Below, in pieces: positions 1 to 54,850 of a stretch of 64,000 nt of DNA. This stretch comes from Takakia lepidozioides (lineage: Eukaryota; Plantae; Bryophyta). The notes under the pieces are model-generated. The model saw only the letters and a list, made by a program, of their open reading frames with translations, made no database searches and was not told the DNA's origin. How positions within the stretch are numbered: position 1 is the first letter of the stretch; each line of letters opens with the position of its first letter. Both the position numbers and the translations under genes were made by a program. The stretch is taken from contig CM060733.1 in assembly GCA_030704615.1 (NCBI GenBank), positions 30,318,001 to 30,382,000 of the forward strand, written 5' to 3'.

Positions 1-40
1 CCGCATTTCGAACGTGCTAGGGAGGGTATGAGTATCTTAC

Positions 41-1437
41 GAGTTGAGGTCCGCCATGGCATTCTTGAGCAGGGAGGAGTCTGCCGCCTTCACCTTGAGG
101 ATGACACACTCCACCATGTAATGCCAGCCAATGTGCTTGGCATGGTTCTGCTTGATGTACTCCCACCAGGCGAGAAGTCGGTGATTCCCGTCCCACACAA
201 AGAACATTTTACCCGACATATGGCCGAAGTCGGGATCACCCTTCAGCGTCGCCTCGAATTCGTGGTTGCGAGTGTGCCAGTGGGTATCCCATGTTGACAA
301 TTCATCGGCAGTGGGTCCACGAGTTTCGCCGTCCTCATTCTCAATGGAAACGTAAAACGCTGCCGATCCCAGACGGTACCCTTCTCGAAATGCGAACTTG
401 AGCTTATCCACATCTCCGGGAAGGGCCTGCCTGACGATGGGAAGGGAGACCATGCGACAGAGTGGGATTCGAAGAGTCCGCTGGAATACCCTGCTGCCCA
501 GAACTCTGCCAATGCTACTGTGTGTCTCTTCCAACATTTTATCCGCTGCACTTTTGAAATCCTCCGGAGACATGTCTGTAGGTGCCGGTAGTGGCTGAGC
601 AGCTGGAGCATCCTCAACTGGAGCTGCACTCTGGGGCCTGTCTGTGGGCAATTCTGCCATTGCAGAGGCCTCCTCCGGGCCTGCTTGCTCATCGGTGGTG
701 AGGTCTTGCTGCGAAAGTTGAGCGGCAGCACCCTCCTCCGGTACCAAATCGAGATCAACGGTCGATCCCATTGCCTTCGCTGCAGCAGAGTCGGCCCCCA
801 ACATCTGCAGGCGGGAAATCCTCCAGGAACTGAGCTTCAGCTCGTGGAAGCGGTTTTGCGGGAGATTGTTCGCCCGTCGCCCTGATTGCCTTCTGCTTCC
901 TCATCCTTGCAGGTGAAGGTGTCTGCTGCAATTGAATCTGTCTTCTACCCTGCTGCTTCATTCGCGTTGGGGGGGGTGAATCGGCCTGAGCCGGTTCAGA
1001 AGCCAGTAGAGGGACGGGCTGCTTCTTCTTCGACTTTGCTGGAGAAGGGCCCGACCCCTGCTGGCGATTCTCCATGACCGAAGAACGCGAGTCGATCTCG
1101 CAGAGGGCTAGGCCCGGCAGGAATACCCGCGCTCGGGGATCGGGTGGGTGTACGTGCTGCAGCTAGCTCCTCGGACTCTTCCTGCGGCTCTTCGGATTCC
1201 TGCGATCCCTCCAGCACGTCCACCTTTCCTGTTAGGCATGCAAACATGTTCTGCATTCAAGTCTCCTAGCATTCAGTCTAAGAATTACAGAAGCAAAATG
1301 GGGGGTTCGGTGCTCGATCAGCTGCGCGCAGCCCGATCGCATGGAGCTCTCACTGGTGGTTGGGTTGCCTGAGTGGCCTGCTGCTCGGAGATGGCAATCT
1401 CCTCCTGTAGACGCATCTGCTTCCTCCCCTTCGGCAT
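41..1437 (-). CDS. ParB/Sulfiredoxin-like (DGNHR motif) protein with a low-complexity N-terminus; multi-exon, two frameshifts, continues past the window start
   Basis: Exon 1 runs 1437-1354 (MPKGRKQ..., GTGAGA donor). Acceptor TGCAG at 1251, then ORFs 996..1256, 755..1075 and 37..804. The last contains FFVWDGNHRLLAW, the ParB/Srx signature. A GTAAGA donor at position 40 indicates further exons to the left. Confidence 0.6.
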
Positions 1438-1861: not shown

Positions 1862-3522
1862 AAAATGCAAATGCGGCGCCGCATTTCCGTTAAGTACCAT
1901 CACGAATCTACACATCCGTACTTGTTGGAAGAAAATGCGGCACCGCATTTCCGTTCCACCTTCACATACCTTAGTTGTTGAACGGAAATACGGTGCCGCA
2001 TTTCCGTCCCACAGCTCCAAGTATGAGATTCAAAAGGGAAATGCGGCGCCGCATTTCCGTTCTGGAATGTCGAAAGGTGCGATTGGGACGGGAATGAGGC
2101 ACAACATTTCAGTTCCCGTGGTTCATGATTTTCAATGTGAACGGAAATGCGGTACCGCATTTCCGTTCCCACTTCACATCCGTTAGATGATGAATGGAAA
2201 TGCCGTGCCACATTTCCGTTCGGGAAAGTATAGAGGTCTCACCTGGACAGAAATGCGGTGCCGCATTTCCGGTTCGGAAAGTTTGAAGGTCTCACATGGA
2301 TGGAAATGCGGCTACTCATTTTCGTAGCACAGCTCCAGGCCCAATATACAAAACGGAAATGCGGCGCCGCATTTCCGTTCTAGAATGTCGGAAGGTGCGA
2401 CTCAAACGGAAATGCGGTGCCGGATTTCAGTTCCCGTTGCGCACGATTTTCAGTCAGAATGGAAATGCGGTACCGCATTTCCGTTCTGTAGAGTATTAAC
2501 GTCTGACGCTGGCGGAAATGCCGTGCCGCATTTTCGTTCCACAGCTCCATGCCTCACATACAAAACGGAAATGCGGCGCCGCATTTCCGTTTTGGAATGT
2601 CGGAAGGTGCGACTCCGACGGAAATGCGGTACCGCATTTCAGTTCCGAGGTTTCAGGATATTTCATCAGAACGGAAATGCGGTGCCGCATTTCCCTTTTG
2701 AATCTAATACATTCCGTTCTGGAATGTTGGGAGGTGCGACTCGGATGGAAATGCGTTGCCGCATTTCAGTTCCGACAGTTCACGATTTTCAGTCAGAACG
2801 GAAATGCGGTACCGCATTTCCGTTCTGGAATGTTGGTAGGTGCGACTCGGATGGAAATACGGTGCCGCATTTTAGTTCAGATGGTTCACGATTTTCAGTC
2901 AGAACGGAAATGCGTTGCCGCATTTCCGTTCTGGATAGTATGAATGTCTCAAGCGGTCGGAATTGCGCTGTATAAAGCTGTCGGAATCGCACTCGGCTCC
3001 ATGCATCAGATACAAAATGGAAATGCGGCGCCGCATTTCCGTTCTGGAATGTCGAAAAGTGCGACTCGGACGGAAATGCGGTGCCGCATTTCTGTTCCCG
3101 TTGTTCGTAAATCTCAATCAGAACGGAAATGCGGTACCGCATTTCCGTTCCACCTTCACATACCGTGCTTGTTGAATGAAAATGCGGTACCGCATTTCCG
3201 TTCTGGAGAGTATGAATGTATTTTAAGGACGGAAATGTGCTGCAGCATTTCAATCCCTCAGCTCCATGCATCAGATACAAAATGGAAATGCGGCGCCGCT
3301 TTTCCGTTCTGAAATGTCGGAAAAGTGCGACTCGGACGGAAATGCGGTGCCGCATTTCTGTTCCCGTTGTTCATAAATCTCAATCAGAACGGAAATGCGG
3401 TACCGCATTTCCGTTCTGGAGAGTATAAAGGTTTCCCCCGGACGGAAACTCGGTGCCGCATTTCCGTCGCTCTGGTGCATGTCCAAGATGCAATACGGAA
3501 ATGCGGCGCCGTATTTCCGTCC
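1862..3522. repeat. Array of ~30 palindromes (consensus GAACGGAAATGCGGYRCCGCATTTCCGTTC) with ~23-bp spacers, 53-bp period
   Basis: Perfect 30-bp palindrome at e.g. 3121-3150. Centres at ~1941, 1994, 2047 ... 2683 and ~3029 ... 3507 are 53 bp apart. Spacers fall into ~5 recurring classes. Confidence 0.95.
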
Positions 3523-3947
3523 ACCAGCAATCGAAAGAATCACTCGGGACGGGAAATCTGGAACCTGAATGGGTTGCATTGTTCCGAAACAACACAATTG
3601 CGGCCAGTCTTGATGAGCACAACTTGGTTGTCTGACCGTTTTAACCAGCAGTCCTGGCACTTGTCAGTGCGAACGTTCCTGTCTGCACCGAGAATACTGC
3701 TGGATCCACCCTCAGGAGAAACTGTCAGGAGATGTTATTTCGTCGCCGAATCGGCCATCATTGTCATACTCACTGGCTATGGAATCAAACCTCCCACCTT
3801 CATGCATGTAGCTTGAAACAATACTTTCCACTTCAATGTGCGACTTCCAATCGTCGATGGACTCCGCAGATCCACTTAGATGGTGCTTGTGAGCCTTGGT
3901 CTGTCGCTATACTGAACCTCGCACTTGCCAACTCCGTGCGGTGTTCG

Positions 3948-6900
3948 ATGGCTCCGAATTCCTACGCTATAGTTAGCTGTCCTCCGCAACTTGGGAGAGC
4001 CTGGATCCCAAACGAGGGAGGACTTTGCAGAGTGACTGAAACTTACCTTTGTTCCAAATTCAAGCTCAAACCGGGCACAGTTTATTTGGAAGAAGAAAGG
4101 AAGGATGTTCCTGGACAGGTTGACGAGACCATTGTCGTGCTAGGTAACGACGGAGGTTGCGGAATCGAATGGCACGTTCCCCCGTCAGACACCATCCTGT
4201 ACCGAGCTGTGGGAATGCCCATTCCCTTTCCGAATCAGTCGCTGCCCACACCATCCACAAAGGAGTCCGGAAACCGAGAGGCGGCCACTGCCAACAGAGA
4301 GGTATGCAAAGATAATCATTCCCGACCTGGACCGTCAAGACCCTCCATAGCTTCTCGTGTGGACGTATTCGACATTTCCGACGAGGAAGATGATTGCATT
4401 GAGGTACCCATGTCCTCCACACGGTCGTTCAAATCCGGCATGGAGTCTCTGTAGGTGCTACGTATGTGCCCTCGAGCATAACTCCAACCCGGTCCATTGT
4501 GCAGCTCCTACGACAACATCACCTCGATGGTTCTCGCTCCGAGCTGGCTGCTCTCGACTATGCCAAATTCCCAGTCAGAAAGGTAGTTTCTGCCTCCCGA
4601 AGTCGATGGCAATGTCATCTTCGAGTTTCCACCTGTTTCTTCGTCAAAGAAAGCCTCCGGGATGTTAACAGACATGGATCGAAAGCATGACGGACACCCC
4701 TGGTGTGTGACGAAGACCAGTAGCACGAAAATTGCTGATGGTGTTCGTGTACGATATGTCCTCTGTGCGGGGAAGCTGAGGTGCCTCAATCCCACCTGCT
4801 TCCACTTTCTCTCCAAAGGAGGGCGGAGAAACGAGACGGATTGGACTGGCACAACGCATCATCCATTCATTGTCTCCAGCCAAGCTCCTGCGGGTTCTTT
4901 CAAGTGTGCACATTGCAAAGAACCACCAACGTGCATGTCCATGTGCAGAGCCAAGCAATACTACGTTATCCATTTGCTCCCGGACTTGACTAGAGCTTGC
5001 ATACACGTTGGGGTCCACTGCCACCCCTTGGCGAGAGGCAACATGCGTGAGGCTGTGCAGGAAGCACACGACATCATAAAAGAGGAGGTGAAATTGAGCC
5101 CCGGAGCCAGACCAAAGCAGATTCAGCTGAAGGCAGCTCACAAGATTGCTCTTGGCAAAATCATGTCTGAAGATGGTTCCGACCGAGAGCCCTTGACCGA
5201 AGACGAGATGCGTGACCTCTTGGAGTCCGTCTCGCACGTTTGTAGTCCGAATGTGCGGAATCACATCGTATCTTGCAAGCAGGAGTTCGGCAGGGGGTCG
5301 GACATGTACTCAATCCTGGAGGTGAAACGAATGACTGGATATGACTACATCCAAGGTAGCAGGTTTCCAGGGCAAGGCAGCGAATCCGATCGTTGTTACA
5401 TTTTCAAAATGTCGACGTGTGGGCCTGGGAGTGGAGTCGATTTGGTCACTCGCATGACAACTGGAAACTTGTCGAATGCTTGGGTGATGTTTGATCACAT
5501 CAAGCGAATTACAAACCATCAGTGGGTGACTATGGGTGCGCATGTTTATGACTATCACTCCAAGAGGCTCATGACAATTGCAATCTGCGAGATGAAAGGG
5601 GAGGACACACAGTCCGAGATGCATCTGTGGGAGGGCATAAACGAGCAGATGGCAAGGGCGGGATTGCCAGAGCCCAATTTCAGGGGATTCATGGCAGACA
5701 ACGCTCAGGCCAACTGGGCAGCGGTGCGGCGTGTGTACGGTGAGGACCCCAATGTTCCAATGGAGGGGAAAGAGAGATCCTGTGGATTCCATTGGATGCA
5801 GAGTCTATCCCACTACACTACCAAATTTGTTGCTAGCTCATTCCAGGCTGAACACCGTGTCCTTTGTACGGTGTGGAAGGATGCACCCACATTTGATGAC
5901 GCGGAGGTTAAGTTTGCTATCATCGAGGCTTGGTGGAACACGTCAGGTGCAGTGGAGACAACCAATCTGGGAGCATTGCACAGCTGGTTGGGGTGGTGGC
6001 ATTTTCGGTATCGACAGTTCGGACAGTACATGCGGGAGGTAGGCTGCTGTCAATTTCGTTCATTTGTCTTTCTGTTACGGACATTTCGATTGGTCCCTCA
6101 CCATTGTTTGTGTCCTTCTAGGAGCGGTGCTTGGATTCCGACACGGACATGCCGAACACGAATATGGCAGAATCGGTCCACTCCTCCTGGCGAGCGTCTT
6201 CTGCCGCACATCTGGTGGACGTAGTCACGGCCACAACGGAGGACATCGACAGAGCAATCATGCAGCAAGCCACGTACTACAAGTTCCTGAGCGGCAAACA
6301 ATGGGGCTTTGGGCCGGACAGGGAGGAATTGTTGGTACGAACAGCTTCGAGGTCCAAGAATCCAGTGAAATGGGCGACAGCATTGCGAGAGAAGATCAAA
6401 GGGACGCCTCTGCACCGCAGAGGTGAACACCTAGAGGGGGACGTCCGGACTCGCCCTGTCAGGCGGAGGATTGAAGAGGAACCCGGGTGCGAAGAGGATT
6501 CCTGGAGATCCGACAGGAACATTCGAACAGCACCTCGAGGTCCCGTCATGTTGCCGCACAATGTGTCGTCCAGCAGTGGAAGTCCAAGAAATTCCAGATC
6601 GCCGTCGCCTTCAACCGGGGATTTCGTGCAACAAATTCCCACCGCTCCCTTGCCCCACATTCCGCCCGCTGTTATGCAGTATGGCCAAGCCATTGTGGAG
6701 ACGACTGTGTCTGCATCACAGTGGAGAATTGCTCGCACAAAGCCGTCGTTTCGAGGAAGGTGTTCCGCAATTCGTGTGGATACACGGCAACGTTGTTTAG
6801 AGATGATAAGGAGGAATCCAGATGGGGCTGTCCCTGCTCCTACTTTTACAGGAAGATTTGTCCATGCAAATTTGCGGAGGCGACAACCACCCAGTTCTGG

Positions 6901-7551
6901 TTCTGCAGGCACGACATTATGACTTGCGTGTATGGAAAGCCCAAGTACGACATACAAACAATGCCAGAGGCTCCCCCGGTGTGGCCGGTGGAACCAGGCT
7001 GCGATCTGAGTCAGGTTGAGACCGACGCCCTTACCGCCGCAGGATTTCGGATGGTGCAGCGCACTGACGTCCCCAGACAACCATTTCCGCTTCCACAGCC
7101 TCCACCACCGACCCCTGTGAGAGCAAGAACAATGGGACACGACAACTCTAAGCATCCTACACACCGTTGGGGGAAACCGAAGAGGCGGCGACCTCCCTCA
7201 AAAGTGAACGAGACAAGGATGGGGAATGCACTTCGGATGAACTGTACAATCCAGAGCTCGACAGAAGTGCCCCCACCAGGATTCGGGCGTGTGTATCAGA
7301 TGGCCACGGCGGGCTCAGCTGTTCGCAATGAGGTGTACACCATCACCATTTCAGAATTACCCACCTGCAATTGCACCGACTTCCAGATCATGGCGAACAA
7401 GGGGGCATCATACTGCCCTTGCAAGCATTTGTACTACGTGTACCTAAAGAGACTCCGTTGTAATTCCACAACTCATCACTTCATACATGCACCAGGGTTG
7501 AGCCCCCAGGAGGTTCACACTCTTCTGAATATGGATCCAGGGGACCAGTGA
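3948..7551 (+). CDS. MULE-type DDE transposase with N-terminal Cys/His (WRKY/GCM-like) zinc finger and C-terminal SWIM finger; one intron, ~3 frameshifts
   Basis: Motifs VMFDH (D1), FMADNAQ (D2), CGFHW (CxxH), NMAESVH (E) and CNC..CPCKH (SWIM). GT-AG intron 6039-6121 joins ORFs 4662..6224 and 6131..6922 in frame. Frameshifts near 4445, 4590 and 6880. Confidence 0.8.
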
Positions 7552-8297
7552 GCTTGGCTTGCGGTCCACATACAATGGTACGCCCATCCTTTTCGGATAG
7601 TAGAACTGTACTGCTGCCAGTACCTCAGACTCTGGCCACAGAAAGGTCCGACATATGTCTTGCCTACCAGTAACCTGTTTTGATCGAACTAAGATATTAC
7701 TATATCGTTCACTTGTTTCCACGTGCATGTATTTTTGTATGTTGGAGGGTTCATGTTTTTCTGCTTTCCGAAAACTTGCTCTCCTCATTCGACCTCCGAC
7801 AAGGAAATGCGGCGCCGAATTTCCAAGTATCGTCGTAGGTACCCCCAGAGGCGGCCTTCGCCAACACCAAACCGCTCCGAAATTTCGCACGTGCGAACCC
7901 TAATGCGGCACCCTATTTCCCAGTTCAGTTGCAAACCTTTCCCGCCGAATACCCGAAGAAGACAGAATTGTGAAGTACTGCAGACTGTATTGGTGCAGAC
8001 TCCATTGGTTCAATCGCGGCAAAAGGGTCAGCTTCATTCCAATGTTAAGGCATGTAAAACCGCGGAATACTCTATACAGGCCAGTATGCGACGTCCTTTT
8101 GCAGTGGTATACTGGATTTCCCGTTGCACGGTCACTTATTTCCATGAGCGGATCTAAAAAACCATGAGCGGACTTGTTACTGACGACATATCTTCGCCGC
8201 ATTACATGATCTGGAACGTCCAAAAACGGCAAGGTCAAATAAAAAACTATTATTTTAATACTTGTTTAATCTGCCGCATTTCCAAATTTGGAGGAGT

Positions 8298-8400
8298 CCG
8301 CTCATGAAATCCGCGTATCTTAGACTTCGGCTCACCGCTCATGCGGCTCATGCGGCTCATGGCTCATGGCTCATGGTTTCTGCTCATGAAATAGTAAACC
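8298..8400. repeat. Subterminal (GG/CG)GCTCATG short repeats at the putative right end of the MULE
   Basis: About 6 GCTCATG copies. Inverted CATGAGCGG copies at ~8143 and ~8163. Confidence 0.6.
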
Positions 8401-8549
8401 TCCATGCGACAGGTAAACTATCATGTCCCATCTCATCGGGAACATGAAGGGAAACTGTTAATGGTACTTTTGGTTCGAGGGCAAGAACATGCTATGGAGA
8501 TTCCCAAAAGGAGTTCGGTACCTTCTCTATTAGAATTATTTCATGCTTC

Positions 8550-8725
8550 GACAACCAGCATGTAGCCCAGTGGTAATGGGCACATACCACGTTGGATGTG
8601 GTTGTGGGTTCAAACCACCGTCTGGTGTGTCATGAAGGTGTCCACCTTCCTGCTGGAAGGCAGTAGCCCTTCGGGGTCAAGTGACACCATAAGTTACGCT
8701 CCCTTCGGGAGGCGTCATATATATA
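8550..8725 (+). mobile_element. tRNA-derived SINE with 13-bp TSD
   Basis: A box TAGCCCAGTGG, B box GGTTCAAACC, (AT)n tail. TSD TATTTCATGCTTC at 8537-8549 and 8726-8738. Confidence 0.85.
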
Positions 8726-8738
8726 TATTTCATGCTTC

Positions 8739-9586
8739 ACTCTATGCTGCACATTTAGGGGTACACAAGACCGTCAAAAGGTTGCAAGAAAAATACTATT
8801 GGAAGGGCCTACATCAGGATGTATCGACCTTCATTCATCAGTGTGTGCCTTGTCAGACTAAAACCCTGCTACCTAGAACCCAAGCTCCTCTTCCACTTCA
8901 GCCAATCCCTATCACTGAATTCTTTGCTCGGGTTGGCCTTGATTTAGTCGGACCTCTCAAAACCACGGCCAAGGGCAATAGCTACTTTGCAGTAGCCACT
9001 GATTACCTGTCCAAATGGGTTGAGATCCGGCCTCTGGTTGCTAAGGATAACGATGAAGTGACACAATTCTTTTTTGATGAAGTTATACTTAGGCATGCAT
9101 GTCCTGCTGAGATACTAACTGACCAGGGGACCGAGTTTTGCAACCAATTGATGGAGGTCATTTGTTTCAACATTGGGGGTCAAGCATTGCTTGACTGCTC
9201 CCTATAATCCTCAGTGCAATGGGCTCACTGAAAGGTTTAATAAGACAATGTGCCAGCTCTTGGAAAAGAATGGGGCTCTGATATATGAGTGGGACATCAC
9301 CTTGCCTGTGCTTATCTTTGCTTATAGAACTTCAGTTCATGTTAGCATTCGATTTTCTCCTTTTGAATTATTGTATGGTAGAAAGGCTAGGACCCCGTTA
9401 CATGTCCCTGTCTTACAGGTGCAAGTGCATGAACCTCCCGATTGGGATCTGTTTTTGGAACAACTAACTGCTCACAGGTTGAGCTTGCGGGAGACTGCCA
9501 AGCACAACATTGCAGTGGCTCAGGTTGCCAAGGCTAAATACTACAACCGACGGGTGGTGTACTCTGAGAGTTTTGTCATCAGCTAG
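8739..9586 (+). pseudogene. Gypsy integrase (zinc-binding + rve core), frameshifted
   Basis: Integrase motifs split over two frames at ~9180. Confidence 0.85.
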
Positions 9587-11642
9587 ACCGTGTGTGTTCA
9601 TCTTCAACCTGGTTTCCAAGGCCAAGCTTCGAATTGATGGGCCCTATTTGATTGCAGGATACTTCCTGGCAGGCAATATCGTTTGTTACCTCAACATGCC
9701 TCCACTGCTACGCTCAAGGACACAGTTCATGTGTCTCAACTCGTCCCCTCTCGTTTGCAGTTCGACCTCACCTGTTTGAATGTTGAAAATCGACATGTGA
9801 TTCTCACACCTCGCAAGCGGCTTGCGACAGAGGACCCTGCTGCTGACGATTCTTAGCATAGTGACAAATTGTTTTGGACTGGCTTTGTTTTGATTTGAGA
9901 TCACTTGCTGGTAGTGTAGCTGTTTTGTTGGCCTCATCACCATGCACTTGGGATTTTTCCAGTGATGTGGTTTTATCCTTCGCTCAACTTGCAGAGCAAG
10001 GTTTTCCTTGTCCTGGTTTTTTCATCCCACTTGCTTGAGGTCTTGCACTGGACATGTTTATTGCAGTAGCTCGCAGGAGCTCGCTTGCAAAGGCTTCACA
10101 TATGTGAAGGACCAGATTCCTCTCTAGTCTTTATTCCCCATCAATGAATGTTATGACTCTGCGGGGATGAAGGCGACTGTTACAATGGATGTGTCAGTGA
10201 TGAGCCTATAAACTTGTCTTATATTAACCGGTAGTAGTATATTAAGCAACAGCCTTGTTGGCGGCCTAGCTGTCACGACATCTGGATAACAATATGAGGA
10301 GCCAATGAGTGATAGCCATCTGGCCATGCAGATGAAGGATGAAAAGACTATTTAATCAAGGGGGACTTGAGCCCTGGTGTGCTGGTTTTGGAGTGTTCAT
10401 CTTTGTGTGTACCTGTGTGGATGAAAGTGTCTCAGTGTACGGTGTGTGATTAAGTCTGGGGAATCGTTCCTTAGGATCTGCAGTCCTCTAGAGTAAGATC
10501 CCTCATCCTATGCATAGCTATACTCCCCCTTTAAGCGCCTCCACCATAGAGGAAGGGAATCTCTGGTGGGCGCCAGAATCTGGCTTCACAGGGATGAAGC
10601 CCGATTACTTTATTATAAGTGGGGAAAAATGGTACACTTGGATGATAATGGTTTCACAATCTGGGTTGGACATAAAACCCTGACTGAAAAAATCACTGAG
10701 ATAAAAATCCAAATTCATACCTCTGATTATTTTCAGACCAAACCACCAGTACATGGCACATGCTCTCAGGAAAGGAAGTGAAAGTATCTACACTGTGAAG
10801 GGCCGGTGTCCCCTCTATGTTTCCATGGCTTTTCTGCAGCAAGGTTAGTTTTTCCTTGCTCTTTTAATTCAATTTACCCCTTTCTCTTAAAAAAGAAAAA
10901 AGAAAAAGAACAAGTGAAAGAATCATGGTTTGGAACACCAGAGTAACTTTGCCAATTGGCAAAGTGCCAAGAAATAGATGGGTGTAGTTCTCAGGTATTG
11001 GATCCCAGACTGGATAGCTTACTGACTGTCATCTGCTTCATTCTAATTTTGATATCCAACTCCTATTGGTTTATAGTGAGCTACTAATTAGCTATGCATC
11101 AGTTGAATAGTAGATCTAGTTCTGTTAACCAAGCAACCACAAGTGCAGTAGCAGAGGACATCATCAACTCGACGGCTGATTCCACAGTGCAGAGAGAAGG
11201 GGAACATCTGCCTACTAGATCTTGTGCCAACTAGGGTCTTAGATGGTATGCATAGTGCCAGCTAGGATAGTGTTCACTTGCGCAGGTGGACGATTTTGAA
11301 TAAGTAGGTTCCCGCCTATGGCTAGCTTCTTCTGGTCTCGCACCTTAAGGGATATGTATCAAGGCTGCTTTGCGATCTGTGACGTATGCTTTCAATTTGC
11401 TAGTTATCAGATAGAACAGACTGTGTTTGTATGTCCATTCAAAGCTGTGTCGAAGCACTACATATAGACTGCATGTTTCTATTTGTGCTTTAGGTTATGG
11501 GCCCACATACGTTGTTAAAGCAATGTGGAGTAGTGAATTATTACAGCATTCACACTGTAGAGAGCGGAAGCGTGGTAGTTCTTTGAAGTTTCTTGATCAA
11601 GAAAGTACTGTCTAGAGCGCTTGTGATTAAGACTCAGTAAAC

Positions 11643-12296
11643 ATGTCATCGATCACGGAATACAAGGAATCGTTGGGGATAGAGAAGTTCAATGGAGATA
11701 ATTTTTCGTTGTGGAAATTTCAGATGCAAATTATATTTCAGGCACGAGAGATGTGGGAGATTGTGGATGGGAGTGACACTAAGAGTGCTACTACTGACAA
11801 AGTTCTGTGGGAGAAGAGGGACAAGAGAGCTGCCTTCGCCATTTTACAAGCCGTAGATAGAAGCCATATGCAACAACTTGTGAACTGTGTGACCGCAACA
11901 GAGATGTGGTCTACCCTATTAACAGTCCATGAACAAGCCGCTGATGAGGATATCACTCACTTGCAAGAGAAGTTCTATCGTTGCCAGATGATAGAAGAGG
12001 ATAGCATCGCATCATACTTTAGCAATATGTCTTCAATTAGGAGACGGCTTAAAGATCTTGGTGAGAATATTAGCGATCGTCAACTTCTGTCAAAGATAAG
12101 GTGTGGTCTGCCGCCAAGTTATAGTCCGCTATTACTTGCTTGGGACAATGTCGATCAGAAGTTGAAAAGCTTTCAAACACAATTGCTTAGTTACGAGAGT
12201 GCCATGAAGTTGAAAGGAGTTGATAATGAGGCTGATAAGGCATTTTTTTGTTGTAAATCAGAAAGGAGGTCAGTCACAAAAGGCAGAGAGAAATGA
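11643..12296 (+). CDS. Copia gag (UBN2-like)
   Basis: IEKFNGDNFSLWKFQM...W..RDKRA...TATEMWSTL...GLPPSY. Confidence 0.85.
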   Translation: MSSITEYKESLGIEKFNGDNFSLWKFQMQIIFQAREMWEIVDGSDTKSATTDKVLWEKRDKRAAFAILQAVDRSHMQQLVNCVTATEMWSTLLTVHEQAADEDITHLQEKFYRCQMIEEDSIASYFSNMSSIRRRLKDLGENISDRQLLSKIRCGLPPSYSPLLLAWDNVDQKLKSFQTQLLSYESAMKLKGVDNEADKAFFCCKSERRSVTKGREK

Positions 12297-12459
12297 CAAG
12301 ATTAGTGCGCTCAAAAGAACAACGCAGTGTAATTGTTGTGGACACACATGACATTGGGCAAGAGAGTGCAAATGCCCTAAGTGTCAAGCTAAGAGGCGAA
12401 ACAAAGAGAAGAGCCAAGCTAATGTTACCGAAGAATATAATGCAGATACTCCAACCGTT

Positions 12460-13085
12460 GTGAGCGATGCTTTTGTAGTGGGTCGACAAAATTTTTGGAG
12501 AGGATTTTACAGCGAGAGAGTATTATCCCGATCTGCGAGAGAGAGAGAGCCAGTTGCATGTGGTGATGTGTTTGCTACAATTCACGAAATTCATGAGGAT
12601 TTGAGTCCTCCAAGGATGGAGTTATTCTCAAGTGAGGTGTCTTACGTTAGATCTACAACTGACAAATGGTATGCAGATTCGGCTGCTACGCAACACATGA
12701 CAGATAAGAAGCATTGGTTCAGTGAATTAGAACCTGAGCGAAAGGGTTACTGGGGAGTTGCTGTGGCCAATGACCAGACCAAGTGGGTTGCAGGTGTTGG
12801 AGATATTAAGATCCTTTCTCTTGTACATGGTCAATGGCAACCAGGAGTTATTCAAAGAGTTTTGTATATCCCTGGATTGTGTCGAAATCTGCTGTCCGTA
12901 GGACAAATGGATGACAAGAAAATTACAGCGGTATATGAAAATGGTCGTGTAGAGATGAGAGAGAAGTCCAAGAATGGACCAGTCATGATGGAAGGAGTTA
13001 AGATAGGACAACTTTACAAGATGAATATGAAGGTAGTTGTTCCAAAGTCACACGCCAATTCTGTCCTAGAAGTTGGGAGCTCTAC
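12460..13085 (+). pseudogene. Copia protease region, truncated
   Basis: WYADSAATQHM and VLYIPGLCRNLLSVGQM motifs. Confidence 0.8.
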
Positions 13086-13134
13086 GTGTGAAGTCTCAAA
13101 TCTTGAGAGGCCTAGAAAGGTCCAAATGTTGTTA

Positions 13135-15469
13135 CTCTGCATACCTTGTGATTTCAGATAGGCATCAATTTTGGCGTACCACGCTCTAGGGGCGTGCTTC
13201 AAGCCGTACAAAGCTTTGAGAAGTCCACATACCAATTAATCATCCCCGTTGAATGTTCCCTCCGGTTGTTCCATGTATACTTCGTCATCAAGGTCTCCAT
13301 TGAGAAATGTCGTGTTCACATGAAGATGGTAGATGGGCCATGTGTTGTATGCGGCTAGAGCAACTATGGTCCGAATTGTTCCCCACTTGACTACTGGCGC
13401 AAAGGTCTCATCAAAGTCGATTCCCTCCCTTTGCTCAAATCCACGAGCAACCAGCCGAGCTTTGAGTTTTTTTGGGGTGCCATCAGCCTTGTGTTTCACT
13501 TTGAAAATCCATTTCGTAGTGATTGACCTCTTTCCAAGAGGAAGAGGGACTAGTTCCTAAGTCTGATTCTTGGCAATGGAGTCTAGCTCCTGTTTCATTG
13601 CATCCCTCCAGCCAGAAATTTTGTTAGCCTCGGTGAAGGTTGAAGGTTCATAAGGAACCTCGAGTGTGTTTACCTCATAGTCCTGTAGATGTGCAGGGCG
13701 GCGTCGTCGTCGTCGGGCTGGACGAATGAGGGAGACAGGTCTGTACAGTGCAACTCTGGGAGATCCAAGTTCGGGCCCTGATTTCTCAAGTGGTGGATGT
13801 GCTGGGACAAAATCTGGTTCTAAAGTGACTTGAGATTGGAGTGTAACCTCCTTTGAGCCCTCCTTATCAGCATGAATCGGAAGATCAACATGTAGATCTA
13901 GGGCCTTCGGTGATGAGGATGTTGAGTTAACATCAATGACTAGGGGAGACTCTTCCAAGTTGTCTGTCGGTGGAGTAGCATAAATAGTTGGTGGATCTAT
14001 ACTTACGGGCTGTTCTATGAATCGGACATCTCTGCTGATGAAAATCTTCCTTGAGAGAGGATTATACAGCCTGTATCCTTTCGTAGTGGTGTCATATCCA
14101 ACAAAAATGCATTCCTCAGACTTAGAGTCTAATTTGTTGCGTTTATGTTTTTCTATGTGAACATATGAGATGCTCCCAAAGACTCTCAAATGGCTCAAGT
14201 CTGGTATGATACCTGAGAAGAGTTCGTAAGGAGTTGACCCTAAGTTCGCTTTTGATGGAGATCTGTTCAGCAGATACACCCCTGTATTCACCGCTTCAGT
14301 CCACAGATACTTGGGTAGAGTTTTTTTCCAGTAAAAGACTTCTTGCATGTTCAAGAAGCGTTCTATTTTTTCATTCGGCAACACCGTTTTGTTGCGGTGT
14401 ATGGGGCTGAGTAAGTTGGCGTTGGATGTTGGTTGCTTGCAGAAACGCAGTGAACTCTCCTGATAAGAACTTTCCGCCCCTGTCTGTGCGAAGCTTGACA
14501 ATAGACATGTCAGTGGCATTTTCTATCATAGCTTTAAACACTTTGAAGTGTTTCAAGGCCTCACTCTTAGCCTTTAGGAAATACAAGTAAACCTACTGTG
14601 GTCGTGCATGATGGTCATGAAATACCTTGATCTTGAGAGTGATGGCACTGGGAGTGGACCACATAGGTCCATATGTACCAATTCGAGGATTTTCTTTGCC
14701 CTGTTTTGAGATGACCAATGAAATCTTTCCCGGTGTTGCTTCCCCATGAGACATTCACACCACACCTCTTTCAGTAATGGTAGTTTCGGTATTCCTTCCG
14801 TTTTGTTGTGATTTGACAGATAGTGGAGTCTGTGAAAGTTTAGGTGCCCAAGCCGTCTATGCCATAATCTAGCAGAAGTATCATCTTCTACAGAGAGAAC
14901 TTCAGTACTGTCTACGACATGAGATTCTAGTGATCGTGAAGGTGTGATTCTACTTTATACAAACTATTCTTTGGGTCCCTATTACCACTGAGTCTAATCG
15001 TGTGTGGAGATTTTGAGTCTACAAAACTACATTTTCTAGAACTAAAAATTCCTATGTGACCTGAATTTATCATGGCACCTACAGAAATCTGATTTTTGTT
15101 AACTCCAGGCATGTAGAGAACATCAGTTATCTTTTTTATTGCTCCATTTGAAAGCTACATGTTGGCATGGCCTTTGCCTGCCACATTGTGATGTTGTCCC
15201 CCAGCTGATCTCACGGTGTTTGTACGAGCTGGTATTACTACGTTCTGTAGCAGGGACTTGTTCCCAAAGATATATCTACTAGCTCCTGAGTCTACGTACC
15301 AATCAGACTCTTTCCCTACGTCCATGGAGGTTAATGCGACTTCTAGCATATGAGCTGAGTCGGCAATATCATCATCCTCAGGGCCAGAGCCGTCTTGATC
15401 ACTTTGATCATCTTCAATCATGTTGGCTTGCTGTGTGGAGCGAATCTTGAGGACTTCCTCATATGGCAC
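13135..15469 (-). pseudogene. Copia pol (PR-INT-RT N-terminal half), fragmented
   Basis: ORFs 15155..15469, 14574..14765, 14371..14586, 13557..14519, 13236..13499 and 13014..13235. Confidence 0.9.
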
Positions 15470-22331: not shown

Positions 22332-25300
22332 TCATTTATACGAAGATACGAACTTTGGACTCACTTCGGGAGGTAGTCGGAAATTCTTGATGTTCAACCA
22401 GACCTCCATGCCTGCCTCAAACTTAACTTCCCTCCGCTTCCGATTCGCCTGCCATTCATACCGTTTCCTTGCTTTCGCAATGTTGTACTTTGCGGAGTGT
22501 TTTGTGTTATTATAACAGAACTTTGCCGCATCCAAGTGCTTCACCCAGTCCGATTGGTCTGCCGACACGTAATTCCGCAAGATCTGTTTCACCATGGAAT
22601 TCACCATTTCCATTTGGCTGTCCGTCGTAGGTCGGAAGGCGGTGCTCATCTTGAGCCTCGTCCCCATTTTCTTCCAAAGTGCCCTCCAAAATTTACTTGT
22701 AAACTTTGGATCGCGGTCCGAGACAATATCCTTCGGGAGTCCATGATGCTTGAAGACGTGGGTGAAGTAAAGTCGCCCCGTCTCCTACACCGTTGCCGTC
22801 TCCTTGGTGGGGATGAAATGGCCCATTTTACTGAACCTATCCACCACCACCATGATTGTACCGAATCCTTTTGACAGCGGCATAGCAGTCATGAAATCTA
22901 TCGAGACACTTTCCCAAGACCCCTCTGGAATCGGCAAGGGTTGTAACAGCCCTGCTTGCTTTTTGTACTCACTCCGATTTTGTTGGCATGTGGTGCATGT
23001 CTTGACATACTCCTCGGCCTCCTCCCTCAGTTTGGGCCATAAATACTCTTTCTTCAAGAGTGCCACGGTGCGCTTGGCTCCGTCGTGGCCCGCAAGCGGG
23101 CCATCATGGCATTCTCTCAAGAGACTATCTCTGATCCCTCCCTCGGCACGTAGAGACGCTTTTGCTTATACCGGAGCAGTCCATGAAACTGAATGAAGTG
23201 GAGCGAAGGTGGCCTACGCACGAGAAAGAAATGAAGGCGGTGATGCATTGCCTTGAGCTTTGGCGCCACTATGTTGGTTCCAACCCGGTAAAGGTGTTCA
23301 CGGACAATATCACGGTGAAGTATTTTGCCACGCAACCTAAGTTGTCCCCAAAACAACTTAGGTGACAAGACACTTTGGCGGTGTTCGACGTGGATATCCA
23401 GTACAAACCGGGACGGGACAATGTGGTGGCCGATGCGTTAAGTAGAAAATAGCAACTCATGTTGGTGTACAGGGGCGAGACGGTGCTCCAAATGAAGATC
23501 CGGAAGGCTTACCGGAAGGATGAGATGGCGAAGTCCGTGATGCAGGACTTGAGGATGGGGGTTAAATCGTTCGTAAGCCACTGGACGTCCATCCTGCATG
23601 AGCGCACCCCCTATTGCGAAGTCCGACGCATCCGTATGAATCTCAAATGGACGGTCGAACTCCGGGATTTTGAGGACTGGAGCTTCCGCCATCCGTTGTT
23701 TCAACTCGGCAAAAGCTTGGCCACAGAAGGTGTTCCATACCCAGACTTTGGATTTACACAGAAGGTCTGACAGCGGCCCCGCGATCTTGGCGAAATTTCT
23801 CACATACTTCCGGTAATAGGAGGCGAGTCCTAGGAAGGATCGCACTCCCGGGACCAAAGTCGGAGGCTCCCAGTCCAAGATTGCCCTCACCTTCCTGTCG
23901 TCCATTTTGATCATATCCTGTGTAATCACATGCCCCCGGAACTCCACCTTTGTGACCCTGAATTCGCACTTTGAAGCTTTGGCATACAGCTTCCCTTCCC
24001 GCAATTTCTGGAACACCCTTTTGAGGTGCTCCAGGTGCTCTTCCTTTGTTTTTGAGTACACCAGTATGTCGTCGATGTATACGATCACAAAGTCATCCAA
24101 CCACTCCTGGAAAAGGCTGTTCATCAGCGTGCTAAAGGTTGCGGGTGCGTTGGTGAGCCCAAAAGGCATTACCAAGAACTCAAATGAACCATACCTTGTC
24201 CTGCATGCGGTCTTCTCCTCATCTCCTTCCACTACTCGAATTTGATGATAGTCGGAGCGCAAATCGATCCGGCTGAAATACTTCGCTCCCGCCAACCGAT
24301 CAAAAAGGTCGTCGATCCTTGGCAAAGGGCACCGGTTTTTTATAGTCACGTTATTCAGAGCCCTGTAGTCGACACACATCCGCAGCGTCCCATCCTTCTT
24401 GTTTGCGAATAGCACTGGGGCTCCATAAGGTGACTTACTCGGCCAGATGTACCCCTTTGACATTAGATCCTTGAGTTGAGTCTTCAGCTTGACCAACTCT
24501 CTGTGGCTCAACCGGTAGGGCGCCTTGGCAGGCGGCTCCAATCCCGGTATCACCTCAATCTTGTGGTCAATTCCTCTTCGTGGTGGCAAGCCGCTTGGTA
24601 AATCCTTCGGCATCACATCCTGGTATTTGTCCAAAATCCCCTTGATCCAATCTAGGCTCGGCTCCCTATCGCCTCCTCCCATCACTTGTCTTACGTAAAG
24701 CAAAAACTGGGGCTCGTGTGGCTCCTCCATGGCCCACTCCTTTGCTGACAACAGGTTTATTTGCCCTCCCACTGGGTTGGGCGTTTCCGACACTCTTAAA
24801 ACTTCGCCACCATTCCCACACGGTAACGTGATTATTCTCTTGCGGCCATCTATGACCGCTCCGGATTTGCTCAAAAATGTCATCCCCAAAATGAGATCCA
24901 CTCCATCGATCTCGCAAATGGTGAAGGTCTCACGTCCCTCCCAACTCCCCAGCTGAAAATGAACATCGAACGCCAACCTCGTCGCCAATTGTGGTTCTCC
25001 TTTGGCAGAACGCACCTCAATAGAGGCCCCCACATCACTCGTCGGGAACACCAGCTTCCGTGCCATTGTCGGTGTCATGAAGGAGTGCGACGCTCCTGTG
25101 TCCACCAACAACGACACGTTAGTTCCGGAGATTATCCCACTCACAAACATTAACTAACTCCCTTTACGCAAAGCGTCAGTTTCTTTGATCATGTGGAATA
25201 TAATGTTGGTAGGATTTACCAAACATGGGTGTGGTAGGAATGCTTTGGCGACCTATGAGCACACAATAGTAGTTGCCTATCTTGCAAGTGTTGGCGACCA

Positions 25301-27146: not shown

Positions 27147-27560
27147 GCCAGTCTGCTGCGACCTCAATCTGGTCCAGCAAGTCCGCTGGAGGGGACTGTT
27201 CGCAAGTAATCCGCTGCAAGACTCACGTGCGCCAGTCTGTTGCGACCTCAGTCTGGTCCAGCAAGTCCGCTGGCAGGCAGGTCCGCCGGAGGGGACTGTT
27301 CGCAAGCAGTCCGCTGCAAGATTCACGTGCGCCAGTCTGCTGCTACCTCAGTCTAATCCAACAAGTCCACTGGCAGGCGAGCCCGCCGGATGGGACTGTT
27401 CGCAAGTAGTCCGCTGCAAGACTCACGTGCACCAGTCTGCTGCGACCTCACTCTGGTCCGTTGGCAGGCGAGTCCGTCGGAGGGGACTGTTCGGAAGTCT
27501 GCTGGCAACCCAGTCCGCTCGGGATGCCCTCTGGCCAAGTCCGTTGCAAGACTCACTTAC
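27147..27560. repeat. ~100-bp tandem repeat, ~4 copies
   Basis: (G/A)CCAGTCTGYTGC..CCTCA recurs at 27147, 27231, 27331 and 27431. Confidence 0.85.
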
Positions 27561-31745: not shown

Positions 31746-31775
31746 TCGAGTCTGATCATGAGAGACAACGGGCGG

Positions 31776-32256
31776 AGCTAGTGGGATAGGGGCAGACAAG
31801 GACTCAAGACCTAGAATCGGGGCATGAAGATGTGCACGATGGTGGGATAACCGCGATCGCAAGGTGTGGTTTTTTCTCAATGTACAATGACGAGCAGAGC
31901 TGGTGGGATAGGGGGCAGACAGGGACTCAAGACCTAGAATCGAGGCATGAAGGTGTGCACGATGGTGGGACAACCGCAATCGCAAGGTATGGTTTTTTCT
32001 CAATGTACAATGACGAGCGGAGCTGGTGGGATAGGGGGCAGACAGGGACTCAAGCCCTAGAATCGGGGCATGAAGGTATGCACGATGGTGGGACAACCGC
32101 GATCGCAAGGTGTGGCTTTTTCTCAATGTACGATGACGAGTGGAGCTGGTGGGATAGGGGGCAGACAGGGACTCAAGCCCTAGAATCGGGGCATGAAGGC
32201 GTGCACAATGGTGGGACAATCGCGATCGCAAGGTGTGGCTTTTCTCAATGTACGAT
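31776..32256. repeat. 123-bp tandem repeat, ~4 copies
   Basis: AGCT(G/A)GTGGGATAGGGG recurs at ~31776, 31898, 32021 and 32144. Confidence 0.9.
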
Positions 32257-32450
32257 GTGAAGAAGTTTGTCCATCCTGCAAATGCGGGCTCTTGGCTCAT
32301 GTTAGACATACCATGATTTTGTATTATTCCTGATGTTTACAAGGTTCTTGGGAGAGTCAGGTTGGTCTTAGCAGGTCGTGTTTCAAGGTCGTGTTTCAAT
32401 CTCTGCTCGCTCAGCTGCACCGTGGTGGTTCTCATGGACCAATCCGCCAT

Positions 32451-33450
32451 TACCACAGATCATAACTTGTACTACTTCAGAATAGATGGTATGATCATCA
32501 TTCTAGTTCTTTATGTGGATGACTTACTTATCACTGGCAATCACCACAAGAAGATTCAATGGTTGAGAGATTGCATTTGAAAGAAGCATTTGAAATGTCA
32601 GATCTGGGACTTGCTAGTTTGTACTTGGCGGCTGAGTTATTGCATCTAGAAAGAGGAATACTGATGACACAGAGGACATATGCGAAGAAGATGATTGAGG
32701 AATTCGGTCTTTGGGATGCCAATCCTGCCACTGTGCCCATGATTGAAGGACTGAAATTGTCATTGGATATGGGATCACCTGCTACCGAACCAGCTGTGTA
32801 TCGTAGGATGGTAGGGAAGCTCGTGTACCTAACGAATACAAGACCGGACTTGATGTTTTCTGTCTCCATAGTCAGCAAGTTTTTGTCGGCTCCACAACAA
32901 GCCCATCTCGATGCAGTTAAGCAAGTGATGAAGTATCTAAGAAGAACACTGGACTACGGACTATTCTTTCGCAACGGAGATGAGAGCATTCTAAATGCAT
33001 TCACTGATCCAGATTGGGCAGGAGACAATGATTCGAGGCACTCCACATCAGGTTACGTGGCTCGATTAGGGGAGAGTGCAATAACCTGGATGTCGAAGAA
33101 GCAACCAACTGTTGCTTTATCATCAACCGAGGCGGAATATCGTGCTTTGACAGAGGGAGCCAAAGAGATTACTTGGCCGAGGAGACTAGCTGAAGAATTG
33201 GGCATTTTGGAGGTTGGACCTACTGCTCTCTTTTGTGATAATCAAAGCAGTGCAAAGATTGCAAAGAATCTAGTTTTCATGCCAGGACAAAGCACATTGA
33301 GGTACATCACCACTATATTAGAGAGAAAGTCGAGAGTGGTGAAATTGACCTCATCCATGTTCCAACGCAAGACCAGATTGCAGACATACTCACCAAACCA
33401 CTCGGCAAAATCAAATTTGAGAAGTTCAGGAAAGATCTTGGAGTTCACAG
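32451..33450 (+). pseudogene. Copia RT (C-terminal) / RNase H
   Basis: ORFs 32362..32580 and 32559..33500, with frameshifts. Confidence 0.9.
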
Positions 33451-33590
33451 CTTGTGCACCATTCAAGAGTGAGGGCATCAACTGCTTCGAAATTTTCTAA
33501 CCGGAGCTTCCCTTAGCCAATTAGTTTGCAACATTGTCAACAGATAGAAGAGCTATTGTGGTGGTTTGAGGATTGAGGGAGGGTGTTAGC

Positions 33591-43011: not shown

Positions 43012-44064
43012 TATCGCGCGGCTTTTACTCACCCATCCCTTCGCTATCCGAGGCGGAAACTCCAAGATAGAAGAGTTGGAAATCTCTAAGTACTCAGCCC
43101 GCTCAGAACAATCAGTCATGACCTACAGCTAGTGTATCATGGGGGTGTTTCCTATTTGTTTTCATTTCCGCATTCATGTTAGCTACCTGGTTATTGATAA
43201 TTAAGTATCAGTTTGCTTCATCAATCTATCGGATTCTATCAACTCATCCATTCATTCCACAGCTTCACTCAGATCTCTCTACACAGTGTGATTGTATCGT
43301 ATAAGTATCAGATTATGATTTATCAGGTATCAGGCCGAAGCCATTGTGTCTCATATCTGTTCTACAATATCACTACAGCTTTGCATATAACAAGCATCTA
43401 CTAATCATCTCTCCTCCTTCACCGTGCTCTCCATGCTTGCTTCCGTTCCTGCTCTCCGCCCGATCCCCTCTCATGCATGACCAAGAAGTCCTCCCCCTCA
43501 AGTGCTTCCAAGAATCCCCCTTCTCAGTCCTTGCTTCTCCCTTTATCTTCTTACCCGTGGCTCTAACCGTTTCCCTCACTAACCGTCGTCCGTGAACTAA
43601 CATGTTCCATTAGCAGGTGTTGTTCCCCACAGTCATTCCCTGTCCTGCTCTCCGTTCCCTATGGTCGTGACAGTTGTGTCAAGCTGTGACTGGCTGTGCG
43701 ACTGTGTTTGGCTGTGTCGGGCTGAGACTGGCTGTGTGGCTGTGTCGGCTGAGACTGGCTGTGTGGCTGTGTCGGCTGTGACGGGCTGTGTTGGCTGTGA
43801 TGGCTATGTCGGGCTGTGACGAGCTGTGCTGACTGTGTCTGGCTGTGTCGGCTGTGACGGGCTGTGTTGCTGTGTCGGCTGTGACGACTATGACGGGCTG
43901 TGTTGGCTGTGACGGGCTGTGTTGGACTGTGACGGACTGTGTAACCCCCCTTTACAGTGCGTTGTTGTCACCCCTAAGGCTCCTGTTGGTCTCAGTCTGT
44001 GCAAAAATTAAGGGTACCCTACAGATCCCGTATAAGTGTCTAAGTCCCAGACAGTCCTCTAACA
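43012..44064 (-). repeat. 3' LTR with internal GGCTGTG(AC) repeats
   Basis: Near-identical to 59786-60757. Confidence 0.9.
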
Positions 44065-45297: not shown

Positions 45298-45884
45298 GCA
45301 TCGATCAAGAGAAAAGCTCCGCTTTGTTCTTTCGTGTCTATGTCACTGCGTAAGTAATATTGCGAGCGTATAGTCTGTTAGTTCCTCCATAGTTTCCAAG
45401 CTATAGCATTGATGGTCTGTCCCGTCGAGACGCCCGTTACTCAGAACGACGCCGCCTCTTGCGCTTAATTTCCCTCCAATTTCTTGATCCTTTCTCTGGC
45501 TTTCTATTGGCTGTAACCGCTGTGACTGGATTTAGATTTCATTTTCTTTAGTGGACTTTCCCTGCTGGATAGTCCACTAGGATCACATATGTGACAAGAA
45601 TTTCGTTTTTCTGTACTTGTCGTTTGTTCCGTTCCCCTTTTTCCGTATTCATTAATGGGCCCGCCTTTCATCCAATTTGACGCGCTGATTAGGTATTTTG
45701 ACGGTCATTCTTGTCCTCTTTCTTGATGACACCTGTTCTTGCACTTCCTTCTCAGCTGTGTGTCGCGCCCTGACTTCCACGTGTCTATTTTTAAACTGGT
45801 TTCCGTCTTTTCTTCCGTCAGCCATTTTCCTGAAGTTATTGTGCGCCCACCTGTCACTGATTCTATGGATCGTGTAATCCTAGT

Positions 45885-46080
45885 AGGCTGTGTCATACTG
45901 TGGTATGCTGTGATAGGCTGTGATGCACTGTGGTTAGCTGTGATAGGCTGTGACACGCGGTGGTAGGTTGTGATAGGCTGTGTTGCGCCGTGCTGGGCTG
46001 TGATAGGCTGTGTCACGTTGTGATGGACTGTGATAGGCTGTGTTTCGTCTTGATAGGCTATGATAGGCTGTGTCACGCTT
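45885..46080. repeat. 30-bp tandem repeat (TGTGATAGGCTGTG core)
   Basis: About 6 units at the end of the integrase ORF. Confidence 0.8.
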
Positions 46081-51482: not shown

Positions 51483-51573
51483 CGGGCTCCGTAAGGTGAC
51501 TTACTCGGCCGGATGTACCCCTTTGACATTAGATCCTTGAGCTGAGTCTTCAGCTCGACCAACTCTCTGTGGC

Positions 51574-54237: not shown

Positions 54238-54850
54238 GATATAGATTCACCTGTGTACTATGCTAGCAGGTTGATGAACAGTGCTGAAAGGAACTATAGC
54301 ACAACGGAAAGAGAAGCATTGGCAATGATCTATGCAGTGAAGAAATTCAGGCATTACCTTTGGGCAAGAAGTTTATGTTCTATGTGGATCACCAGGCTCT
54401 GATATATTTGGTAAACAAACCTATGATAAGCGGAAGAATAGCAAGATGGTTGATAATCTTGCACGAGTTTGAGTTCGAGGTTGTTTACAAGCCTGGGAGA
54501 CTGCATCTTGTGGCGGATCACTTATCACGGTTATCAACAGGAGAACCAGCCACAGGAATAGATGATTAATTACCAGATACGAGTCTATTTGCAGTGGAGG
54601 TGTAGGGAAGTACAGATGAATGGTTAGATTGGCAGTGGCCAATCAGATACTACCTTGCTCATGGTCAGTGCCCACCTAGTTATGGTAAGGAGCAGAGGAA
54701 GAGAATCGCTATCAAAGCTTTACCTTATACTATGGTAGGAAGCAGAATGTATAAGCTAGGACCTGATGGAGTACTAAAACGATGCTTGTACCACCATGAA
54801 GTAAATAAAGTTTTGGAGGAAGTTCATAAAGGAGTGGCTGGAGGTCATTT
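54238..54850 (+). pseudogene. RNase H-linker-integrase zinc segment of the host Gypsy, locally inverted
   Basis: Plus strand reads YYASR..ERNYSTTEREALA..ADHLSR..HKGVAGGHF, whereas the host pol is on the minus strand. Confidence 0.88.

Follow-up and report, generated by a model that had tools for sequence, protein, structure and literature searches.

An array of 30 palindromes in the genome of Takakia lepidozioides forms an internal non-coding section of a Mutator-like DNA transposon, with a transposase gene on one side and a ParB/methyltransferase (MTase)-like gene on the other. From comparison of sequences we consider it probable, at roughly two chances in three, that this section acts as an array of helically phased binding sites for the ParB-MTase-like protein. 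From the comparison come candidate operator sequences for six families, one per family, together with a rule for their spacing and one naturally recombinant family, which favours the ParB-MTase protein over the transposase.

The host element and its two genes

The features below are those of the window, by which we mean the whole stretch of 64,000 nucleotides that was analysed; negative positions in the text refer to DNA upstream of its first base.

1..11, no strand: right half of one isolated palindrome, within the intron after the ParB exon
40..900, minus strand: exon for a ParB/Srx-like N-domain (VWDGNHRL; Box II GxxR), part of a multi-exon ParB-helical-MTase-like gene
1863..3522, no strand: palindrome array of 30 units, core GGAAATGCGG-YR-CCGCATTTCC, 53-bp period, five spacer classes
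3548-3577: degenerate 31st palindrome unit, adjoining the array
3645..4454, plus strand: open frame just upstream of the transposase core, likely the 5' part of the transposase; out of frame in the window copy
4587..6029, plus strand: transposase, with a GCM-like zinc domain and then the catalytic core (FD..., MAD..., CGFH)
6122..7548, plus strand: 3' part of the transposase, with the TNMAES glutamate and then a SWIM-like finger
7803..7824, no strand: isolated palindrome lying 3' of the transposase; another, in a more decayed state, at 7899-7920
8337..8402, no strand: right terminal inverted repeat (TIR) with CATGAGC-type sub-repeats, a motif unlike the array palindrome
8403..8410, plus strand: target-site duplication (TSD) of 8 bp, its twin beside the left end, ~13.9 kb upstream of the window start

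Comparison with nine other copies delimits the element at -13923 to 8402, a length of about 15.3 kb once a nested 7-kb Ty3 retrotransposon is subtracted. Its ends are short imperfect TIRs, bordered by TSDs of 8 bp in four copies, 8-9 bp in two and none in one, a scoring in which seven of ten further end pairs did not have both ends in the DNA compared; these lengths are shorter than the 9-11 bp typical of Mutator-like elements (MULEs). At least 150 near-identical copies exist, and the family is young, as all 150 scored ParB-exon matches are at least 98% identical. Outside the array, single copies of its palindrome are found in three introns, in the gap between two ORFs and beyond the 3' end of the transposase.

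Several further observations concern the element and its surroundings. A second, looser cluster of about 10-12 palindromes lies near the left end, at -11520 to -10750 (L032), with intervals of 32, 33, 83, 53, 63, 63, 113, 137 and 84-86. Element positions 467-2145 (in the L047/L048 copy) hold two divergent ORFs that resemble each other at about 46% and flank a single palindrome; this pair is present in the window family (F1) and in one locus related to family F3, and is absent from families F2 and F4. The nested Ty3/gypsy element (G000:C3; -8931 to -1954, L031) sits inside the MTase exon, has 731-bp LTRs that are 99.45% alike and an open frame of 1405 aa, and has relatives at 23438-25153 and 48880-53328. 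The element families are often nested in one another, several times inside transposase genes or arrays (L043/L044/L091, L109, L112, L147, L155). Elsewhere the window contains further tandem repeats at 27177-27459, 31768-32257, 43683-43942, 45884-46079 and 60438-60635 (100-bp, 123-bp and GCTGTG-rich 10-bp units), and fragments of integrase, Copia-like and Gypsy-like genes at 8566-9586, 11631-14522, 32523-33500 and 54730-59109.

The transposase appears to follow the layout described for MULEs, in which a GCM-like zinc domain is followed by a DDE core and a SWIM finger (PMC1702500): a WRKY-GCM1 domain, a DDE core with CxxH and a C-terminal SWIM can all be discerned, each signal being weak alone. 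The N-terminus is placed by Atlas, at 0.96, in a GCM-containing cluster (PF03615 in 12% of members); Pfam matches are weak (SWIM at E 0.024; Transposase_mut in 2 of 35 homologs, best E 0.034); and the FD, MAD and CxxH motifs occur in the families scanned, with TNMAES in F1 and F3. The frame of the window copy changes near 6870-6920, and an independent contig has one extra base at 4444 relative to that copy.

The gene on the opposite strand encodes, in order, a ParB/Srx-like domain (Atlas 0.94; Box II GNHR), a helical middle and an N6_N4 methyltransferase-like end, and is kept in all families with an intact neighbourhood. It extends left beyond the window, where the 7-kb Ty3 element interrupts the MTase exon of this copy, and the frame of its ParB exon is open to about 1256 in most copies. 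That exon has 863 relatives at E<=1e-3; ten were looked up, of which eight are species-named, all from Riccia and Adiantum, and several relatives keep the whole architecture. A model of a Riccia homolog (pLDDT 71) supports a ParB fold for the N-domain with moderate confidence: Foldseek ranks 1-10 are all ParB, KorB or Noc (E 0.05-0.14), and alignment with the KorB N-domain gives a VIA Z of 7.5, which is within that tool's common range, with rmsd 2.9 over 95 residues. No helix-turn-helix was matched in the helical region after the N-domain of a 570-residue homolog model, and the string GVKSR, considered as a ParB HTH marker, is unsupported by homologs or model. Pfam at E<=1 gave nothing for the six window frames flanking the array and nothing significant for 12 homologs, nor did sequence searches of solved structures return a significant match.

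Beta-class N4C/N6A DNA methyltransferases carry the catalytic motif (D/N/S)PP(Y/F/W). The methyltransferase-like end (Atlas 0.91, with 10 of 10 best family matches in agreement) has the N6_N4_Mtase fold with motif IV before motif I, the latter reading LDLxxGTG, and a Riccia homolog matches PF01555 at E 5e-5, short of the curated cutoff. The catalytic consensus is not matched, the corresponding residues being DIPDG in F1, F3 and F4 and DLPTG, DVPFG or DFPIG in homologs; catalysis is doubtful, since motif IV reads DIPD and not DPPY. Fusions of ParB with N6N4-MTase domains are described as common in phages, and the nucleotide used by ParB-like proteins as not predictable, in the portion of that study available to us (10.1101/2025.10.10.680097). 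In the third exon of the ParB-MTase gene, the helix before a conserved IADP motif has one residue (SAF-D/G/V-KQ) that varies with palindrome type (F6, F4, F2/F7), which makes this helix a candidate recognition helix.

Array geometry, sister families and helical phasing

A sequence-only reading of the array had described a conserved 30-bp palindrome, a 23-bp spacer and a period of 53 bp, and this geometry is confirmed, with 30 palindromes and 25 of the 29 intervals at exactly 53 bp (the other four being 64, 74, 113 and 54). The pattern GGAAATGCGG-NN-CCGCATTTCC, with up to 3 mismatches, has 29 matches in the window, 28 in the array and one at 7803, and none in 100 shuffles. The same reading held the palindromes to be more conserved than the spacers, and monomer comparison agrees: across the 25 regular units the 30-bp palindromes have a mean pairwise identity of 81% and the 23-bp spacers one of 36%, the best-kept portion of the palindrome being a 22-24-bp core outside which the bases show only partial symmetry. 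Clustering recovers the five spacer classes that had been reported, but their cycle is irregular, since the class order along the array (?DABCDEEABCEABCbCBCaBCDEABCEA?) is a higher-order repeat of 5-, 4- and 2-mers from which a strict 5-mer is absent. The palindrome centre does track position in the cycle, as proposed, with 6 of 7 GGCGCC centres at the A|B spacer junction. The notion of unrelated spacers of constant length stands as regards length, which is constrained, but not entirely as regards unrelatedness, classes B and E having 10-14 of 23 bases in common.

The same constraint on spacer length is seen in other genomic copies of the array. From 699 candidates 40 were scored, and in the best 30 of these an interval of exactly 53 bp is found 698 times in 884 and one of 52-54 bp 771 times; class order is nearly identical, with whole units gained or lost. 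Many of the 52-bp intervals are probably one-base assembly errors, to judge from scattered frameshifts. Some copies (G000:C326:697-3005 and L025) contain extra blocks of 265 bp comprising five units, so that the 5-mer counts as one expansion unit. Long frames span the array on both strands; a coding role was rejected because 53 cannot be divided by 3 and the units follow no regular order. A scan for bacterial promoters and terminators gave a signal no higher than in shuffles.

F1 has five sister families, and each of the six has its own palindrome around a common CG[G/T]-NN-[A/C]CG core at the dyad, located in the same intergenic place and/or in introns of the ParB gene. F2, whose ParB and transposase proteins are 44% and 42% identical to those of F1, has in the same place as the F1 array a different palindrome, of 34 bp, with a period of 116 (182 of 275 intervals; 237 at 115-116). 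F1 and F3 have their TIRs in common but not their palindrome, that of F3 differing by one base per arm and recurring at periods of 53, 64, 74, 85 and 96. The palindromes of F4, F6 and F7 are again their own, and are partly dispersed among unrelated spacers and in a ParB-gene intron; those of F4 are dispersed in an intron and upstream (one stretch without an element, L131, being excluded from the F4 counts). Two side observations place repeats on the far side of the transposase gene: the right end of family F6b (L162) has a second kind of palindrome 3' of the transposase, at spacings of 42, 84 and 42 bp (4, 8 and 4 turns), and F3 has a 74-bp array in the same place.

Metagenome relatives from other organisms were gathered from 69 loci forming 43 clusters; 28 clusters reach 3 kb or more. 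Of these 28, 7 have the ParB gene and the transposase in the same divergent layout, and a strict scan found a palindrome group in only one. A looser scan of 15 clusters found groups of at least three palindromes in seven (shuffles 1-2), about five of them credible; in these 15 the palindromes were dispersed and CpG-decayed, and no phased array was present. The dispersed palindromes of L200, L246, L253, L222 and L254 look like CpG-decayed forms of a CGG-YR-CCG core. Phasing is seen in the Takakia genome, and elsewhere no phased arrays occur among the metagenome clusters scanned.

The suggestion that a 53-bp period would place all sites on one helix face holds, and extends to the sister families, the tandem periods of which are also near whole helical turns. 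Counting as tandem the units amplified at least three times in a row, the main periods 53, 64, 74, 85, 96 and 116 each differ from n x 10.6 by no more than 0.6 bp (p=5e-5 for the 10.3-10.7 band and 2.5e-4 when any period of 7-16 is allowed), for a six-period set that was first chosen by eye; a rule-based listing also gave 32 (3.03 turns) and single values of 51, 52, 75, 84, 95 and 115, which were treated as variants. When all recurrent intervals are taken, 13 of 18 distinct values fall within 2 bp, and the best period between 7 and 16 is 10.55 (p=0.004 in the helical band, p=0.07 for any period); one F3 array full of indels (L109) was excluded from this and from the compensation analysis. In families added afterwards, 12 of 17 interval values lie within 2 bp (p=0.014). 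The 7 new values from these later families, a subset biased against phasing, are unphased (mean cos -0.18), the 25 distinct values pooled give p=0.41, and dispersed sites at 113, 111, 121, 90, 141 and 164 bp are off phase. Since tandem periods fit n x 10.6 and the pooled values do not, phasing is tight in tandem arrays and loose in dispersed sites.

The probable partner of the palindrome and competing explanations

A family that helps to assign a partner to the palindromes is F6b, which is intact in three copies that are 99% alike. Over five ParB-MTase exons it is 74-83% identical to F6a and F6c, with 57-63% in the transposase, and its transposase is 69-80% identical to those of F4 and F7, with 52-61% in the ParB gene. 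Accordingly F6b falls beside F6a/c when the tree is built from the ParB gene and beside F4/F7 when it is built from the transposase, with bootstrap 100 in each, and in AU tests of six topologies each gene is rejected on the three topologies of the other (p<=3e-4; the 5000 replicates are below the number that the program recommends). The palindrome of F6b is that of F6; sites of F4 or F7 type are absent in all three copies, the ends are F4-like, and the spacers have no detectable match to F6c. Sequence comparison shows that in this recombinant the palindrome goes with the ParB-MTase gene, whereas the ends go with the transposase. The simplest reading would be that the ends serve the transposase and the palindromes serve the ParB-MTase protein, with the qualification that the case represents one recombination event, that physical linkage joins the palindromes to the ParB gene, and that an F6-type transposase could act in trans. 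Among the other families, F4 and F7 have transposase N-halves that are 78% identical and different palindromes, and F2 and F7, which pair in the ParB tree (support 73), have inner arms that resemble each other. A family lacking ParB, which would have served as a negative control, was not found among 15 transposase loci; the 3 of 15 loci without a linked ParB exon match F2 or F4 copies cut by other insertions, and F2 and F4 normally carry that exon.

These relationships bear directly on the possibility that the GCM-like domain of the transposase itself binds the palindromes, as an autoregulatory or anti-silencing array. The assignment of the transposase N-terminus to a GCM-containing cluster speaks for this, as does the presence in the palindrome half-site of ATGCGG, which we take to be close to the animal GCM motif. 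The transposase of AtMu1 is reported to bind and hypomethylate its own elements, and yet the binding peaks, in the part of that report available, are located at the TIRs (10.64898/2026.08.24.746577). One transposase clade (F4, F7, F6b) is associated with three palindromes and two transposase clades with a single one, and the element ends have a motif of their own that tracks the transposase. We regard binding by the transposase as unlikely.

Palindromes might alternatively be retained for their secondary structure, as cruciforms or as hairpin RNA giving rise to small RNAs, with no sequence-specific protein involved; the sequence-only reading had envisaged serial hairpins and small RNAs of this sort. 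A 301-nt piece of the array does fold strongly as RNA (z = -13), and in F3 each of the 5 pairs in which both sides have changed is compensated. However, the predicted fold pairs palindromes with distant units and forms no local hairpins, compensation is seen for 0 of 38 arm deviations in F1, 0 of 113 in F2 and 5 of 147 in F3, and the 12 Rfam matches to the array are generic hairpins, every one under its gathering score. Structure alone, moreover, predicts neither family-specific sequence, nor a shared core, nor helical phasing, and as an explanation it is very unlikely.

The pattern of change points to selection on the sequence of the palindromes and not on their shape, and CpG sites bear on this as well. 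Within the array, CpG persists in 54 of 62 arm half-sites and in 7 of 31 centres, the rest being TG, CA or TA (the units are related and not independent), and in all non-CpG units the centre changes are deamination products of CpG. Across the 30 copies, shared CpG variants are rarer in cores (5 of 154) than in spacers (11 of 57; p=3e-4), while shared variants outside CpG are, among recent copies, equally frequent in the core and in the spacer (p=0.77, or p=0.06 when all sites are counted). Decay of the central CpG suggests that the sites are at times methylated, and hence that any protection is partial.

An ordinary internal minisatellite, in which a chance palindrome was multiplied by slippage and conversion without function, would accord with the similar singleton rates of core and spacer in recent copies (0.0026 vs 0.0039 per site and copy) and with a unit order that shifts through duplication and loss. 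It does not account for the palindromes of F4, F6b and F7, which are retained without any tandem repeat, both within introns and between unrelated spacers, for the phasing of tandem periods, or for the survival of arm CpGs where the central one decays; we consider it highly improbable. Equally improbable is the reading of the array by a host factor, or its use as a nucleosome-positioning signal, with the ParB gene a bystander. Phasing at ~10.5 bp is also a property of nucleosomes, and the array does lie between two divergent genes, but six different family-specific sites that go with the gene tree of the element itself are not what one would expect of a host factor. The analogy with a CRISPR-like memory array acquiring spacers, drawn in the sequence-only reading from geometry alone (a conserved palindrome and fixed-length spacers), can be set aside as practically negligible, because the spacers recur by duplication in five related classes with an order inherited across 30 copies, sequences representing the five classes had matches in 1.09 Mb of searched DNA only next to palindromes, and the array is flanked by a transposase and a ParB-MTase-like gene with no cas genes among the flanking ORFs. 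Overall, that earlier interpretation, which did not recognise the transposon or its neighbouring ParB-like gene, is partly supported.

Proposed mechanism and relation to known systems

In the binding array that we propose for the ParB-MTase-like protein, each palindrome would bind one dimer, and in-phase spacing would put neighbouring dimers on one helix face and allow them to cooperate, as has been proposed for sopC. Tandem amplification of any in-phase unit would then be favoured, so that spacer sequence may drift while spacer length changes in steps of ~10.5 bp. By analogy with VANDAL/VANC, the coated region between the two genes may resist host CG methylation, through occlusion, base reading or the writing of 4mC/6mA; such an anti-silencing role is plausible at somewhat less than even odds. 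A fuller version, in which a bacterial-style ParB/parS module operates in land-plant MULEs and a nucleotide-gated ParB clamp-MTase loads on the array, spreads, writes or reads 4mC/6mA and blocks silencing, is tentative and on balance rather unlikely. That the protein is an active 4mC/6mA writer is doubtful, owing to the DIPD catalytic motif.

ParB-like genes accompanied by inverted-repeat arrays are already in print for algae; the phasing and the comparison of partners are added here. The accounts of these algal elements and of the other systems below are taken from the portions of the cited texts available to us. One is Plavaka PAG3 of Bostrychia, a DNA transposon of giant size that carries a ParB-like gene as an accessory and, next to it, tandem inverted-repeat arrays; its authors propose that the protein both binds and modifies its own element (10.1101/2025.02.11.637652). 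Features of such ParB-accessory giant transposons, namely a ParB-like N-domain and tandem inverted repeats alongside the gene, are found here as well. PAG3 differs in that its ParB domain is joined to a 2OG oxygenase, with the methylase encoded by a gene of its own, and in being an EnSpm/Plavaka element of a red alga; the available portion of its account holds no analysis of phasing or co-variation, and its Supplemental Fig. 13 and Table 6 may give array periods. Sola1-1_Ec32 of Ectocarpus likewise has a fusion of a ParB-like domain with an N4C/N6A methyltransferase on the strand opposite the transposase (PMC12477816), but with a Sola1 transposase and in a brown alga, and the word 'palindrom' is absent from the text of that paper. 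Our literature search found no land-plant version or helical phasing of such arrays; Iyer et al. 2011 may cover land-plant relatives, and the element is not described in the available portions of PMC4738411 and PMC12973397.

With six families at hand, the proposal of self-binding is opened to a simple comparison of cognate and non-cognate pairs. If it is true, the system would represent a second, independent form of self-targeting in plant transposons in addition to VANC, perhaps the first case of a ParB/parS-like clamp acting on eukaryotic chromatin, and a source of orthogonal protein-site pairs for epigenome tools. With thousands of candidate matches to the ParB exon in a genome of 325 Mb, it could also shape the host epigenome.

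Two further systems provide parallels. In the sopC/SopB locus of the F plasmid (ParABS type Ia), palindromic tandem repeats recur every 43 bp, or four turns (PMC3177203), with one palindrome per repeat, a whole-turn period, non-palindromic central bases and a nearby ParB-family gene, as in the array described here. The whole-helical-turn spacing of sopC and parS sites is found here for tandem periods and is looser for dispersed sites. In contrast to sopC, the core is 22-34 bp rather than 16, its centre is pyrimidine-purine and the spacers diverge, and the element is a eukaryotic transposon without need of partition, the protein of which has an MTase-like fusion and no HTH match. VANDAL elements of Arabidopsis are MULEs with an accessory protein, VANC, for which anti-silencing is proven (PMC5735166), and they share with the element described here family-specific motifs that are amplified as tandem repeats, lie in introns and intergenic regions, and evolve with the protein. 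The VANC motifs, however, are of 8-9 bp, with no occurrence of 'palindrom' in the available text of that paper, whereas here a ParB fold and an MTase-like domain are predicted and anti-silencing would be inferred by analogy. Taken together, the array most likely resembles sopC/SopB in its geometry and VANDAL/VANC in its logic.
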